A DNA stretch of 64,000 nt from Candidatus Latescibacterota bacterium (GCA_965217585.1 OZ244561.1:4128001-4192000), one strand, 5' to 3'; positions 1-30,144 are shown, numbered from the stretch's first letter. The notes: generated by a model not told the origin, from the sequence alone. Translations and numbers: made by a program.

Positions 1-1737
1 GACGGCGTCCACGATCACATAGTGGGTCTTCCCGCTGACAGCAGAAGGCGAGACTTTCTTGAGATCGTCGTGGTCGAGTGTGCGCGTGCCACGGCCCTTC
101 ATCTGCTCGAAATAGTTGCGACTCCTCACGTCGCGCATGAAGAGCAGGCATTCGAGCGGCCTGACGTCAGTACCCGTGGCGATCATATCCACGGTCACAG
201 CGATGCGCGGGTAGTAGTCGTTGCGGAACTGGGCGAGAACAGATTTCGGGTCTTCTTCGGTTTTGTAGGTGACCTTCTTGCAGAACTCGTTGCCTTCGGC
301 GAATTCCTCGCGCACGGTCTGGATGATGTCGTCGGCGTGGCTGTCGGTCTTGGCAAAAATAAGTGTCTTCGGGACTTCGTCGCGGCCCGGAAATATCTCA
401 GACAGTTTGTCGTGGAAGGTACGGACGACGGTGCGGATCTGGTCGGGGTTGACGACGGCACGGTCGAGCTCCTGGGCACCATAGGTGAAGTCTTCGTCTT
501 GGATCTCCCAGCGCTTTCGGCGGGTCAAGCGCTCGCGCTTTTCGACCTGCTGGCCGGTTTCGAGCCAGCCGCCGTGCTTCGTCCGTTTCGTATCGATGAC
601 GTAGATCTCGTTGCCGACATTGACGCCGTCGGCAACGGCTTGCTCATGGGTGTACTCGCTGACGATGTTCTTCTTGAAGAATCCGTAGGTGCGGTTATCC
701 GGCGTCGCGGTCAGGCCGATGAGATAGGCGTCGAAGTATTCGAGGACTTGACGCCAGAGGTTGTAAATCGAGCGGTGGCATTCGTCGATGATGATGAAGT
801 CGAAGAACTCGGGTGGAATCTTGTCGTTATAGACAACCGGCATCGATTTTTTTGGGCTAGCCATTTCCGCCGGATTGATCTCTTCGGTGGATTCGTCCAA
901 CTCCTCGCCCTTCAGGAGCGAATACATGCGCTGGATGGTGCTGATGCAGACTTGGCTGTCCTTGGCGACGTAAGACGATTTGAGCCGCTGGACGTTGTAG
1001 AGCTCGGTGAATTTCCGGTTGTCGTCACTGGGTACGTAGGCCATGCATTCCTGCTCGGCCTGTTCGCCCAGATGCTTGGTGTCTACGAGAAAGAGGATGC
1101 GCTTGGCGTCAGCGTGTTTGAGTAGCCGGTAGATCGAGGTGATGGCGGCGTAGGTCTTGCCCGAGCCAGTGGCCATCTGAATGAGGGCGCGTGGACGGTC
1201 ATTTTTGAAGGATGCTTCGAGCTTCTCAATGGCGTTGACTTGGCACGCTCTTAATCCGGAGGGGTCTAAACTCGGGAGCCCTTGGAGCCGCTCACGAAGC
1301 GAGGCCGACTGAGTGAGCCAGTCCTGTATTGTCTCTGGCCGAGGAAAGCTGAACACCTCCCGGGAGCGGGGCTTCGGATCGCATGTGTCGGTGAAGCGCG
1401 TGAGCACACCGGTGCTTTCGTAGATGAACGGAAGAGGCTCGGTATTGCTCACCCACTTGAGGTTGGCTGCGGCGTAGCTGCCGGACTGTTCCTCGACCGT
1501 CGTGATCCTCTGGCCCCAGTCCTCCGGCTTGGCCTCGACGACGCCGACGGGTTTCTTGTCGACGAAGAGGATATAGTCAGCGGGGCCGACAGATGTCTGA
1601 TACTCACGAACAGCGATCCCGAGGCCAACGCTGAAGTCGATTTTGTTGTAGTCCTGAACTATCCAACCCGCATTGGCTAGCTGTTCGTCGATTTTGTCTC
1701 GCGCCGCCTGTTCTGGCGTCTGATTTTCACTCGGCAT
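1..1737 (-). CDS. hsdR: Type I restriction enzyme R subunit (5' part; runs off window start)
   Basis: Manual minus-strand translation from ATG 1737: MPSENQTPEQAARDKIDEQL...GPADYILFVDKKPVGVVEAK (nuclease motif), QMATGSGKT (Walker A), IIIDECHR (DExH), GLTATP, VDMIATGTDV, EQMKGRGTR. Missing from the ORF track because it has no stop within the window. Confidence 0.95.
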   Translation of the reverse strand, partial: MPSENQTPEQAARDKIDEQLANAGWIVQDYNKIDFSVGLGIAVREYQTSVGPADYILFVDKKPVGVVEAKPEDWGQRITTVEEQSGSYAAANLKWVSNTEPLPFIYESTGVLTRFTDTCDPKPRSREVFSFPRPETIQDWLTQSASLRERLQGLPSLDPSGLRACQVNAIEKLEASFKNDRPRALIQMATGSGKTYAAITSIYRLLKHADAKRILFLVDTKHLGEQAEQECMAYVPSDDNRKFTELYNVQRLKSSYVAKDSQVCISTIQRMYSLLKGEELDESTEEINPAEMASPKKSMPVVYNDKIPPEFFDFIIIDECHRSIYNLWRQVLEYFDAYLIGLTATPDNRTYGFFKKNIVSEYTHEQAVADGVNVGNEIYVIDTKRTKHGGWLETGQQVEKRERLTRRKRWEIQDEDFTYGAQELDRAVVNPDQIRTVVRTFHDKLSEIFPGRDEVPKTLIFAKTDSHADDIIQTVREEFAEGNEFCKKVTYKTEEDPKSVLAQFRNDYYPRIAVTVDMIATGTDVRPLECLLFMRDVRSRNYFEQMKGRGTRTLDHDDLKKVSPSAVSGKTHYVIVDAV

Positions 1738-25054: not shown

Positions 25055-27022
<1,968 letters not shown>

Positions 27023-27062
27023 TCCCCGGCGACTCCTTTAACTAAACGGAAAAGAGAGGAAG

Positions 27063-28055
27063 ATGGACAAGATTCGCGTGGGATTTATCGGCTGTGGTGG
27101 AAATGCCAGCGGGCACCTAGGGCGGATGCTCGGCATCCCCGAGGCCCAAGTGGTGGCTTTGTGCGATGTGGATCAGGCCAGTCTGCAGCGGGCCAAGGAG
27201 CGCAACCCGCAGGCCGCGGAGTTGCCGGAGTTTACCCACTACCAAGAGATGCTGGAGCAAGTCGAACTGGACGCGGTAGAAATTTCCACGCCACACACAT
27301 TGCACTTCGAGCAGATTATGACCGCGCTGGACAAAGGGCTGCACGTGCTGACCGAAAAGCCGATGGTCTGTACTGTCGATCACGCGCGCCAAGTTATCGC
27401 CAAAGCAGAGGCGACCGGCAAGGTCCTGATGATCTCCTATCAACGGCACTTGGGGGCGCAGTACCGCTATGTGCGCAATCAGATCGCGGCCGGGGAATTG
27501 GGGGATATCCAGTTTATAGCGGCGCTCCAAGACCAGAAGTGGTATCGGGGGACGATTGGACTGTGGCGGCAGCAAATGGCGCTGTCGGGCGGCGGACAGC
27601 TCAACGACTCGGGAAGCCACCTACTGGACATCGTGTTGTGGATGACCGGGCTGGAGGTGGCAGAGGTGCAGGCCTACATGGAGCATTTCGACTCCGAGGT
27701 GGACATCAACTCGGCGCTGTCACTGCGCTTTGGCAACGGTGCGCTGGGGACGATTGCGGTGGTGGGCAACTCGCCGACCAGCGGGATGTGGGAGGACATC
27801 ACCATCTGGGGAACCAAGGCGGTGGTCTATATCCGCCAAGGACAGGTCTTTTACAAGACGCAGCACAGCAGCGAGGTGTATCAGGTAAATAACTTGCCCG
27901 GCTCGGCGACGCCCGACCAGAATTTCATCGACGCGATTCTCGGTCGCGATCAAGTGCAGGTGCCCCCCGAATGCGGTTTGCGGGTCATTGAGCTGACCGA
28001 AGCGGCATGGGCTTCGGCCGCCAGCGGGCAGCCGGTCAAAGTCGAGCGGCAATAG
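27063..28055 (+). CDS. Gfo/Idh/MocA oxidoreductase
   Basis: GFIGCG, STPHTLH, HVLTEKP, GGG...D.GSH..D. Confidence 0.92.
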   Translation: MDKIRVGFIGCGGNASGHLGRMLGIPEAQVVALCDVDQASLQRAKERNPQAAELPEFTHYQEMLEQVELDAVEISTPHTLHFEQIMTALDKGLHVLTEKPMVCTVDHARQVIAKAEATGKVLMISYQRHLGAQYRYVRNQIAAGELGDIQFIAALQDQKWYRGTIGLWRQQMALSGGGQLNDSGSHLLDIVLWMTGLEVAEVQAYMEHFDSEVDINSALSLRFGNGALGTIAVVGNSPTSGMWEDITIWGTKAVVYIRQGQVFYKTQHSSEVYQVNNLPGSATPDQNFIDAILGRDQVQVPPECGLRVIELTEAAWASAASGQPVKVERQ

Positions 28056-28059
28056 ACGA

Positions 28060-28088
28060 TTGACCCGGTTCACTAGCTCCTGTATATT
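28060..28088 (+). promoter_or_regulatory. Sigma70-type promoter
   Basis: TTGACC-17 nt-TATATT. Confidence 0.7.
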
Positions 28089-28094
28089 AAAAAT

Positions 28095-28397
28095 TGAGTC
28101 GAGTTCGGGGGCCACAAACCTCTGTTACCGCCACGCTGAGGCTCGAGGCTACGCGAGCGAGCCAACCCGACTTTGTCATTGGCCGCAACGACGCGCAGAG
28201 TTGGAGTATGGATTATGAGGCGCGCACTAGCGAAAGGAGGTGGTTCATTGAGTAGTAATTGTACCGCAGGGAGGTTGATCACTTGATCAACTCCAGGTGA
28301 TTAACTACCTGGTCAGGAGCACAGTCGCCTCGGCGGCATAGCTTCTGAGAGTACAGCCGGGCGCACCCCACCTTAGCGGGTGCGCCCGGTTTTTTTA
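28095..28397 (+). ncRNA. Candidate structured RNA or small-ORF transcript of unassigned family
   Basis: Lies between a promoter and a strong terminator; several pairable helices; AAGGAGGT followed by TTG ORF MSSNCTAGRLIT (28248-28286). Confidence 0.55.
28355..28397 (+). terminator. Rho-independent terminator
   Basis: 12-bp perfect stem CCGGGCGCACCC/GGGTGCGCCCGG followed by T7. Confidence 0.9.
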
Positions 28398-28461
28398 TTT
28401 GTGCTGCACTAGGTTGGTTCCCACACGGTATTTTGCCATATTGTCCGCGAGGAGGCCGTCT

Positions 28462-29433
28462 ATGAAACGCATCGCCAAGCCCGCAGGGGCTTATAACATC
28501 GTGGTAGAAGAAGTCGAGGTTCCGGCTATTGCCCCGACCGAGATTTTGATTCGCGCCGAATGTTCGCTAATCAGCCGAGGCTCGGAGATATGGCGGCGCT
28601 ACGTGCGCGAAGAGGCGATCGATCACCGCGCCATGGGCTACTCGCTGGTAGGCCGGGTCGCGGAGGTCGGCGCGGAAGTCGAAGAGTTCAGAACCGGCGA
28701 TTTGGTCGCGGCTCTCGCGCCGCACGCCGAATACGTGGCGGTCGAAGTCGCAGCCAGCCAGCACAAGCCTGCGGCCGTGCGCCTGCCAGCGGGCCTGTCG
28801 CCCGAGGCGGGCACCTTCTGGCCGCTGGGAACTAGCTCGGTCCTGTGGATGTGGGAGACCGAGGCCGGCCCGGACGATGTCATGGTCATCCAGGGGCAGG
28901 GCTTGGTCGGCAGCGGTTGTATGCAGGCGGCCAAAGCACAGGGCGCGGGGCGCGTCATCGGGATCGATGCCTTGCCCTTGCGCTGTGAACTGGCGCGCGA
29001 GTTAGGGGCCGACGTGGTGGTAGACGCCAGCGCCGGTGACTCTGTCGCACAGGTCTTGGAGCTGACGGACGGGAAGGGTGCCGATATAGTGGTCGAAGCT
29101 GTGGGCGGGCGGGCCGGGGCGCAGGCTTTTGCCGAGGCGCAGGACATGCTCAAGCGCGGCGGCCTCTTGCAGGTGCTGGGCCTATACGAAAACGAACCTC
29201 TGCCGCTCTACTCAGAAAAAATCATGGGCAAGCGCCTCGTGGGCAGCTATCTCGACGCCAGTCGGCGGCCCGCAGGATCGGCACGTACGCTGGAACTGTT
29301 GGCCACGGATCAGATCCAATTCGCCAAGATGATCACCCACCGCTTCCCCTACACCGAAGCGGCAGCAGCCTTCGATCTGCTCTATAACCGATTGGGCGAG
29401 ACGATGGCGGTATTGTTGACGTGGGACAACTGA
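28462..29433 (+). CDS. Zinc-binding (MDR) dehydrogenase-like protein
   Basis: SLISRGSE, MGYSLVG, GQGLVG, ITHRFP; SD GGAGG. Confidence 0.85.
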   Translation: MKRIAKPAGAYNIVVEEVEVPAIAPTEILIRAECSLISRGSEIWRRYVREEAIDHRAMGYSLVGRVAEVGAEVEEFRTGDLVAALAPHAEYVAVEVAASQHKPAAVRLPAGLSPEAGTFWPLGTSSVLWMWETEAGPDDVMVIQGQGLVGSGCMQAAKAQGAGRVIGIDALPLRCELARELGADVVVDASAGDSVAQVLELTDGKGADIVVEAVGGRAGAQAFAEAQDMLKRGGLLQVLGLYENEPLPLYSEKIMGKRLVGSYLDASRRPAGSARTLELLATDQIQFAKMITHRFPYTEAAAAFDLLYNRLGETMAVLLTWDN

Positions 29434-29448
29434 AGTCAGGAGACGACG

Positions 29449-30144
29449 ATGAGTAGGACTGTAGAGAAGCTCTTCCGCGCCCCTTATGGGGTGCCCAATG
29501 CGCTGCAAGTAGTAGAAGAAGGACTGTGGATTACCGACCAAATTACCGACCGGGTGGCGCTGATCGAAATCGCCGAGCCGTCTGAATACGGCGTCACCCG
29601 CCTGATCCGCGATATTCCCAGCGAGTCGTCCAATACCAGCGGCATGGCTTGGGGCGGCGGTTCGCTGTGGTTGGCGGCTAATGGGGCGGGTACGCTCTGG
29701 CGGCCCGCACGGCCGACGGACGCTGAGGAGGGAGAAATTTTTGAGGTTGATCCGGACACCGGCGCGACCCGCAATCGCTATCCGGTACCCGGCGGGGGTG
29801 GGGTTCACGGGATGGAGTACGATCCGTTTGAAGAGGGCCATGTGTGGATCACCACCCTCAAGAGCCAGACGCTGAGCAAAGTCAAGATCGCTGGCTGGTC
29901 GGTCGAGCACGTGCTGGATTTGCCCTACGGGCGGGCGCACGGCGTGGTGCGGGTCGCCGACGGCATCTGGGTGGTGCATACGTCCGACCGCGCAATCGTC
30001 AAGCTCGATGTGGAGAGCGGGGCCGAGTTGGATCGAGTTATGGTGCCCGACAGCGACCCCGAGCCGCATGGTCTGTCGATTTTTGGCGAGGATTTTGTCT
30101 ATTGCGACGCCACCTCTGGATGGGTCGTCAAAATTAGTCTGTGA
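29449..30144 (+). CDS. Beta-propeller repeat protein of unknown function
   Basis: Repeated G(M/L/V)xW/Y...(L/V/I)W blade-like units. Confidence 0.65.
   Translation: MSRTVEKLFRAPYGVPNALQVVEEGLWITDQITDRVALIEIAEPSEYGVTRLIRDIPSESSNTSGMAWGGGSLWLAANGAGTLWRPARPTDAEEGEIFEVDPDTGATRNRYPVPGGGGVHGMEYDPFEEGHVWITTLKSQTLSKVKIAGWSVEHVLDLPYGRAHGVVRVADGIWVVHTSDRAIVKLDVESGAELDRVMVPDSDPEPHGLSIFGEDFVYCDATSGWVVKISL

Follow-up and report, generated by a model that had tools for sequence, protein, structure and literature searches.

Dual-function small RNAs (sRNAs) such as SgrS/SgrT, RNAIII/delta-haemolysin and SR1/SR1P encode peptides of 26-43 amino acids that are conserved as proteins. In Bacillus, one report describes a Shine-Dalgarno (SD)-like element, STAB-SD, that binds the 30S ribosomal subunit and prolongs the life of the mRNA (PMC12970973), and another describes initiating ribosomes at strong SD sequences that block RNase J1 (PMC5737220). 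Here we describe an RNA encoded in a 64,000-nucleotide stretch of a Candidatus Latescibacterota genome (GCA_965217585.1 OZ244561.1:4128001-4192000), called the window below and numbered from its first letter. An initial annotation of the window had noted, at 28060-28397, a structured transcript with a strong SD and a 12-codon open reading frame (ORF), and had proposed a search for homologues in which covariation, SD-to-ORF spacing and the peptide would be compared. The RNA almost certainly represents a real and novel family; it is akin to leader-peptide switches, dual-function sRNAs and SD-based stabilisers, and yet is a member of none of these. The reading that we favour, with confidence a little above even, is that the RNA stands free and engages ribosomes, and that it would act through the translation of its mini-ORF and not through the peptide.

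Conserved core of the RNA

Of 132 genomes of the class, 73 matched a covariance model (R1) built from the 94-nt core of the RNA, each of them exactly once. These were 68 of the 75 genomes in the RNA's own family (f1), 3/3 and 1/22 genomes in the neighbouring families f3 and f4, respectively, and 0/31 in another family of the class (f2); each of the seven f1 genomes without a match was a draft of 170-780 contigs. R1 was also run on an even sample of the phylum, in which it matched 57 of 63 genomes of f1, both genomes of f3, and none of 85 genomes from twelve other families. The 53 loci aligned to R1 gave 48 distinct cores, and a 54th match, a weak reverse-strand echo of a palindromic hairpin, was left out.

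The core opens with an extended SD sequence, SD1 (28232-28247, + strand; GAAAGGAGGTGGTTCA), which can form 16 contiguous pairs (14 Watson-Crick and two G.U) with the 3' tail of the 16S rRNA of the same genome, whose gene ends in ...GCGGCTGGATCACCTCCTTTCT. The first 13 nt of SD1, GAAAGGAGGUGGU, were identical in nearly all homologues, one locus (L104) having GGGAAGG, and the same 17-nt tail sequence was found in 5/5 checked genomes of other genera. Among the 16,981 GGAGG sites of the genome, 31 reach 13 pairs with the tail and 6 reach at least 16, one of these six being the antisense of the 16S gene itself. The length of SD1 is extreme, not unique. Other sites that pair with 15-16 contiguous tail positions lie at G000:C1 5606635, 3766088, 4791525 and 7020374, among others. 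The 7.3-Mb genome contains a conserved motif near the 16S 3' end at one position only (G000:C1 ~5647315, - strand), which suggests a single rRNA operon.

The mini-ORF (28248-28286, + strand) starts with TTG, comprises 12 codons (MSSNCTAGRLIT) and ends with TGA at 28284-28286; the initial annotation had read it there together with AAAGGAGGT, and the sequence is as claimed. An ORF was present in all 48 cores, starting with UUG in 29, GUG in 11 and AUG in 8. The spacing of the SD and the ORF was also kept, the start codon lying 6-8 nt past GGAGG, or 11 nt past it in four cores. ORF length ranged from 9 codons (4 sequences) through 10 (6), 11 (3) and 12 (32) to 13 (3), and all the changes in length were in frame; in one clade, an extra base in the hairpin strand is accompanied by one G fewer upstream, and the reading frame is thus restored. 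The stop codon was UGA in 43 cores, UAA in 3 and UAG in 2, and its first base lay one position before the last paired base of the 5' strand of the hairpin P3, described below, in 46 of 46 scorable rows. Where the stop was UAA or UAG, that base pair was broken and the stop kept. The ORF further contains an internal SD-like GGAGGT (SD2; 28270-28275, + strand) that ends 8 nt before the stop codon; this distance was 8 nt in 37 cores and 9 nt in 10, and SD2 was not found in one.

The amino acid sequence was not conserved in the same way. The 48 cores encode 36 distinct peptides, among them MSSNCTAGRLIT, MSSSIPLRRSTT, MSSCIPAGGATT, MESTGRSIT and MIATTRRWVV, with radical changes such as C/R/S at one position. 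Since frame, start and stop are kept while the peptide varies, selection appears to act on the start, the stop, the frame and the nucleotides, and not on the amino acids. An alternative is an ordinary mRNA for a small protein, in which a peptide of 9-13 residues is functional, the 5' untranslated region is long and structured, and the strong SD merely secures a high output. This would account for the ORF signals being kept in 48/48 cores, for the very strong SD with its ideal spacing and for the high level of the RNA; a loose pattern of composition, with a Ser-rich start, a basic or Gly middle and a Thr/Ile/Val end, is also in its favour. We consider this explanation doubtful. Besides the variety of the peptides, such residues as are conserved fall where the SD-like motif and the hairpin strand lie. 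In one clade the codon phase of the conserved GGAGGU differs, and G-G is encoded instead of G-R or R-R. Within the genus, third codon positions of the ORF were no less invariant than the other positions, which argues for a constraint on the nucleotides, and preferred codons are in the minority, with a synonymous share of at most 0.24 for 8 of the 11 sense codons in this genome. Read-through of the UGA and a second, overlapping TTG ORF were dropped as candidates, neither being conserved outside the genus.

The second half of the ORF, with the internal GGAGGU followed by the stop codon, forms the 5' strand of a long hairpin, P3 (28267-28311, + strand). This strand, CAGG-GA-GGTTGATCACTTG, spans 28267-28285 and is followed by a loop (28286-28293) and by the 3' strand, CAGGTGATTAACT-A-CCTG (28294-28311, + strand). 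In P3, a small internal loop separates a 4-bp base (CAGG/CCUG) from an upper helix of 13 bp, 17 pairs in all, and in each of the nine lineages folded the core had this hairpin as its minimum-energy structure. On an alignment of 49 distinct rows fitted to the model structure, a procedure which inflates the paired percentage and not the compensatory changes, 95.3% of 807 cells were paired, compared to at most 46% for slid controls. Ten of the 17 pairs had changed on both sides (58 cells), which none of 500 column shuffles reached. The two small hairpins that the initial annotation had drawn in this region can form (100% paired in 29 sequences of the same genus), but are invariant within the genus and compete with the covarying P3. 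On 24 sequences, these hairpins (28274-28291 and 28293-28312) were 98.8% paired with two pairs changed on both sides, and they are kept as alternative pairings only, because P3 has far more covariation.

An SD-like 8-mer occurs twice in the RNA, within SD1 and within the 3' strand of P3, and its complement also occurs twice, just 5' of the stop codon and at the 3' end of P3. An alternative fold can therefore be drawn in which SD1 pairs with the segment before the stop, a pairing possible in 97.9% of cells, and the 3' strand folds into a hairpin of its own (89.9%). This fold lay 1.2-10.4 kcal/mol above the minimum-energy fold in the 10 lineages computed, and a state of the RNA in which SD1 is hidden remains a hypothesis of structure modelling. 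A long-range helix between the middle of the ORF and the segment before the terminator (GUAC/GUAC versus AUACC/GGUAU) is not claimed; its duplex energies ranged from -0.6 to -13.5 kcal/mol and were better than those of shuffled partners at the 5% level in few of 46 sequences.

The extent of the family became apparent only with the covariance model. A DNA (blastn-type) search of 61 relatives gave matches with 82-96% identity in 28 of 30 further genomes from the same genus; the remaining two are 58% and 75% complete. Other genera of the family shared the central core alone. The notion of a genus-restricted element that arose from this search was rejected when R1 revealed the limit of its sensitivity. 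Thirty-five loci came from an exact-pattern scan in which each species was represented by one genome; L036 and L044, which had nothing in common with the others beyond the pattern, were dropped as chance matches, and the others are all true homologues. The assemblies with homologues are labelled Candidatus Latescibacterota or Gemmatimonadetes/-ota, and the RNA is single-copy in the closed, one-contig 7.32-Mb genome studied here. One locus, L138 (G103:C2:66678-66744; 27.5 bits), matches the 5' two-thirds of the core with the SD and a 12-codon ORF kept; the 3' strand of the hairpin is absent and a terminator was not found, and this locus may be a decayed or remodelled copy.

Comparison of the window with Rfam 15 at the gathering threshold gave no match at the RNA locus, in keeping with the earlier view that it could not be assigned to the signal recognition particle RNA, RNase P or a riboswitch. 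The only match in the window was a full-length tmRNA gene at 2075-2433 on the - strand (RF00023, 197.5 bits, E 4.7e-79). An E-value scan of 27950-28500 returned eight weak, chance-level matches, the best with 23.6 bits against a cut-off of 45 bits, and ten diverse homologous loci gave one unrelated tRNA and nothing else. We found no description of such an RNA in open-access full text searched for anti-SD-pairing 30S sequestration and for sRNAs of sponge-associated Gemmatimonadota.

Transcription unit and accumulation of the RNA

The transcription unit is bounded as the initial annotation had proposed. A promoter-like sequence of sigma-70 type (28060-28088, + strand) consists of a -35 element, TTGACC (28060-28065), a 17-nt spacer and a -10 element, TATATT (28083-28088); it matches the consensus at 10 of 12 positions and is the sole such site in 27500-29000 (shuffle mean 0.5). 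A pair of the type TTGNNN-16..19-TATATT was found upstream and at most 175 nt from the SD in 26 of 44 distinct homologues, and a promoter-type pair lay further upstream in some of the remaining ones. At the other end, a strong intrinsic terminator (28357-28396, + strand) is formed by a G+C-rich hairpin at 28357-28389 (CCGGGCGCACCC.../...GGGTGCGCCCGG), whose stem has 13-14 bp rather than the 12 bp first given, and by seven T residues at 28390-28396. An automatic terminator scan reported no terminator at the locus, probably because the loop as read has 9 nt and the limit of the scanner is 8 nt. The stem CCGGGCGC.../...GCGCCCGG (window 28357-28389) was kept even in the most distant homologues (f3 and f4). 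Such conservation across clades is not usual for intrinsic terminators, and may point to a second role.

The resulting RNA has a length of about 300 nt here and of roughly 225 to more than 300 nt in relatives. Its + strand folded with -126.8 kcal/mol (z -3.68; 0/100 shuffles as good), and the result for the - strand was less clear (z -2.0; 4/100 shuffles as good). The claim that the unit holds no long sense ORF stands in part: ORFs of 37-53 amino acids are present on the sense strand at the locus, and 1-nt indels between species break their frames. A 37-residue ORF in frame with the mini-ORF (28173-28286) was rejected for the same reason.

Upstream of SD1 lies a 5' domain (28095-28231, + strand), its start being inferred from the -10 box. 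The size of this domain differs between clades, from about 70 to more than 170 nt; its last elements, directly before SD1, are always a G+C-rich hairpin followed by a short A-rich linker. In one species (L047 2676-2730, - strand, in G099) the hairpin and linker are tandemly duplicated. The multi-way junction that had been suggested for this part was borne out in its two inner stems, CGGGGG/CCTCTG being 99.4% paired and GGCTCG/CGAGCC 100% paired in the 29 same-genus sequences, with one pair of the latter occurring as UA in 13, UG in 9 and CG in 7. Its closing helix (28097-28105/28164-28172) proved weak, with 89% paired, one pair open in 17/29 sequences and another in 8/29. RNAalifold on the same 29 sequences paired 28164-28175 with 28194-28206 with no broken pair. 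The junction is also not what the family conserves as its core.

Between P3 and the terminator is a variable hairpin, P4 (28313-28348, + strand; TCAGGAGC...GCTTCTGA, with an apical GTCGC/GCGGC stem), which shows compensatory changes within the genus and is absent in some clades. A helix GAGGCG/CGCCTC, proposed earlier to close the 3' part of the RNA, was 93.5% paired but clashes with P4. In some clades the terminator follows just 1-9 nt after the core. In one species of the genus, L025 (G026), 20 nt of the P4 tip are absent (alignment A1, columns 233-252), which indicates that the tip is dispensable.

Six RNA-library runs from three studies contain part of the stretch, and four of these were mapped on 27000-29500. 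In X16, labelled as a sponge metagenome, a whole contig of 258 nt lay at 28115-28369 with a depth of 1071, and contigs on both flanking genes had depths of 2-5. In X19, contigs at 28152-28240, 28211-28274 and 28245-28361 had depths of 25000, 7475 and 1360, respectively, and a contig on the downstream gene had a depth of 11.4. X17 yielded a contig at 28115-29336 (depth 317) and an upstream contig (11.7), and X20 a single contig at 27172-29366 (depth 165). In two independent studies, the depth of contigs wholly within the RNA thus exceeded that of separate contigs on the neighbours by a factor of 100-2000, with the qualification that these are assembled contigs, strandless and without ends, each with a single depth figure of a kind unsuited to ranking genes. 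The RNA exists and is abundant, and is apparently very highly expressed. A contig start at 28115 was common to two studies and, like any part without contig cover, is at most a weak hint. The abundant X16 contig carries an in-frame GCA insertion at window position 28265, as does the L004 genome, indicating that this contig derives from a sister species and not from the genome studied here.

A proposed ribosome-engaging RNA and the alternatives

The conserved SD and ORF signals make it very probable that ribosomes engage the ORF, and they favour to a lesser degree, somewhat above an even chance, a structural effect of translation over an effect of the peptide. The 5' hairpin and the A-rich linker would present a complement of 13-16 nt to the whole single-stranded 16S 3' tail, and 30S subunits would dock very tightly at SD1. 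A ribosome would then translate the mini-ORF from its ideally spaced start and would have to melt P3 to reach the stop codon. At the stop, a helix could form between the ribosomal anti-SD and the internal GGAGGU, whose distance from the P site would be about that of initiation. Once separated, the strands of P3 may adopt the alternative fold and so hide SD1 until P3 re-forms; because the SD-like 8-mer and its complement each occur twice, the passage of a ribosome could flip the RNA in this manner. As in a leader-peptide switch, the effect of translation would be structural, and the binding or occupancy of ribosomes would presumably also stabilise and protect the RNA. The output may be the buffering or sensing of free or idle ribosomes and not the control of a particular gene. 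This last step is speculative, and a role as a ribosome buffer is, in our estimate, rather unlikely. The initial annotation had offered a dual-function or ribosome-sequestering RNA as one possibility, and this pointed in the right direction in that the SD and the start, stop and frame of the ORF are the most conserved features.

In a more specific form of the idea, the RNA would serve for ribosome parking. An abundant decoy mRNA would capture 30S or 70S particles through the entire 16S tail, and the mini-ORF and hairpin would provide release and reset, the ORF being translated once, the RNA refolding and the docking site becoming hidden. The tail would be shielded from 3' exonucleases in the meantime, and a pool of idle ribosomes would be buffered in slow-growing symbionts. 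We regard this as improbable, if worth stating. The possibility that the RNA replaces a protein hibernation factor was rejected, because PF02482 occurs in families with and without the RNA; there is no complementary pattern that would point to ribosome storage.

Several observations tell against a ribosome-engaging RNA of the kind that we favour. The PF02482 hibernation factor was found in 119 of the 132 genomes and in all four families (f1 66/75, f2 29/31, f3 3/3, f4 20/22). Very long SD sequences also exist at the five other sites of the genome that reach 16 pairs. The depth figures have the nature described above, the X17 contig begins at 28115 and extends into the downstream gene, the single X20 contig covers 27172-29366 at uniform depth, and read-through or carry-over of DNA is therefore possible. 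The alignment that supports P3 was itself fitted to the model. The alternative fold showed no covariation beyond that of shuffles, 152 of 500 of which reached the observed percentage paired, because SD1 never varies. Finally, the SD-like and anti-SD-like repeats may simply be what any hairpin with an SD-like sequence looks like.

The same repeats could be read as those of a trans-acting base-pairing RNA, in which anti-SD-like 8-mers would repress many mRNAs at their SD regions and the mini-ORF would gate their exposure. The two conserved copies closely resemble the 16S tail, translation would unpair both, and the abundance of the RNA would suit such a role. In all the lineages folded, however, the minimum-energy structure has both copies base-paired, their conservation is accounted for by P3, and an Hfq gene was not found in the genome. 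A trans-acting role is thus unlikely.

The genomic setting bears on whether the RNA could act in cis. On the + strand, it lies between a gene for a GFO/IDH/MocA oxidoreductase (27063-28055) and one for a zinc-type dehydrogenase (28462-29433), the latter beginning 65 nt past the terminator. If translation of the mini-ORF set the read-through of the terminator, the RNA would be a leader-peptide attenuator of the dehydrogenase gene; the same-strand position of that gene, the attenuator-like architecture, and the RNA contigs of which one runs from 28115 into the gene and another spans everything are consistent with this. Among 31 loci compared, however, the dehydrogenase was downstream in only 6 and the oxidoreductase upstream in 10, all from related genera. 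Elsewhere the neighbours were unrelated, often on the opposite strand, and included an epimerase, ParA with a sigma-54 activator, MetRS with a phosphate-binding protein, an amine oxidase, an Na/H antiporter, a RIO kinase and a URO-D-like protein. In addition, no antiterminator pairing with the terminator was seen in the folds, and in X16 and X19 the depth of contigs inside the RNA was far above that of contigs on the gene. We therefore give the attenuator little credence, and the variation of the flanking genes among genera indicates that the RNA is a gene in its own right and not the leader of a particular gene.

An atypical 6S RNA, which had also been suggested, would sequester RNA polymerase by mimicking open promoter DNA. 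An abundant, single-copy RNA of roughly 200-300 nt would fit, and the slot is formally empty: RF00013 gave no match at E<=1 in the genome itself and none at E<=0.01 in 61 relatives, in a search that is insensitive and detects 6S RNA in 4-5 of 14 control genomes. Families without the RNA also lack an RF00013 match, so that the two distributions are not complementary and the absence of matches is uninformative. The RNAalifold structure of the 29 sequences is branched, with unpaired 5' and 3' ends and a 3' terminator hairpin, and is not an end-paired rod with a central bubble; the conserved features are those of an SD and an ORF. We hold a divergent 6S RNA to be very improbable. None of the 61 class genomes had an RF00013 match, closed ones of 97-100% completeness included, and the 6S RNA of the lineage is either very divergent or missing. 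The further proposal of a sponge that titrates CsrA/RsmA through its GGA motifs, of which there are about five, can be set aside almost entirely, barring a CsrA-like protein outside PF02599, since the one-contig genome has no PF02599 match in a search that finds CsrA in three control genomes, and the conserved GGA motifs lie within SD1 and the P3 stem and not in loops.

If the RNA does engage ribosomes as we envisage, it would represent a new bacterial RNA design, a stand-alone RNA at housekeeping level conserved for how it engages the ribosome, and the conserved information would be neither a peptide nor a target seed nor a protein-binding motif. It would offer a test case for the effect of very long SD-anti-SD helices on initiation and ribosome clearance, for whether internal SD-like sequences hold terminating ribosomes, and for whether idle ribosomes are buffered by RNA as well as by hibernation proteins. 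For annotation, R1 provides a model of a transcript that ranks among the most abundant unexplained ones in this widespread, uncultured lineage.

Comparison with known systems

The RNA resembles 6S RNA in size class, abundance and single copy number, and differs from it in having no RF00013 match and no rod-with-bubble fold. Like tmRNA, it is abundant, apparently stable and single-copy, and contains a short internal frame that ribosomes would engage; what sets it apart from tmRNA is the presence of an SD and a start codon, the absence of a tRNA-like domain and the lack of an RF00023 match at the locus. A stand-alone, structured sRNA body combined with a short ORF that is probably translated is also the plan of the dual-function sRNAs. 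The ORF here, however, has 9-13 codons and varies in its peptide as set out above, and no base-pairing seed was evident, no search for targets having been made.

The likeness to leader-peptide attenuators and regulatory upstream ORFs is of another kind. In these, too, a short ORF keeps its frame and its position relative to hairpins and not its peptide, and the position of the ribosome decides among mutually exclusive helices; here the ORF overlaps helices that are alternatives to each other. Unlike an attenuator, the RNA has a promoter of its own, a conserved and efficient-looking terminator and no conserved downstream gene, and it accumulates as an abundant stand-alone RNA.

With the Bacillus STAB-SD and strong-SD stabilisers, the RNA shares a long complement to the 16S 3' end near a 5' structure, with 13-16 pairs in the present case. 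STAB-SD is part of the leader of a long, protein-encoding mRNA and does not depend on a start codon, whereas the SD of this RNA serves a conserved mini-ORF and no cargo gene. If bound 30S subunits or initiating ribosomes block ribonucleases here as reported for the stabilisers (PMC12970973, PMC5737220), this would explain the abundance of the RNA.

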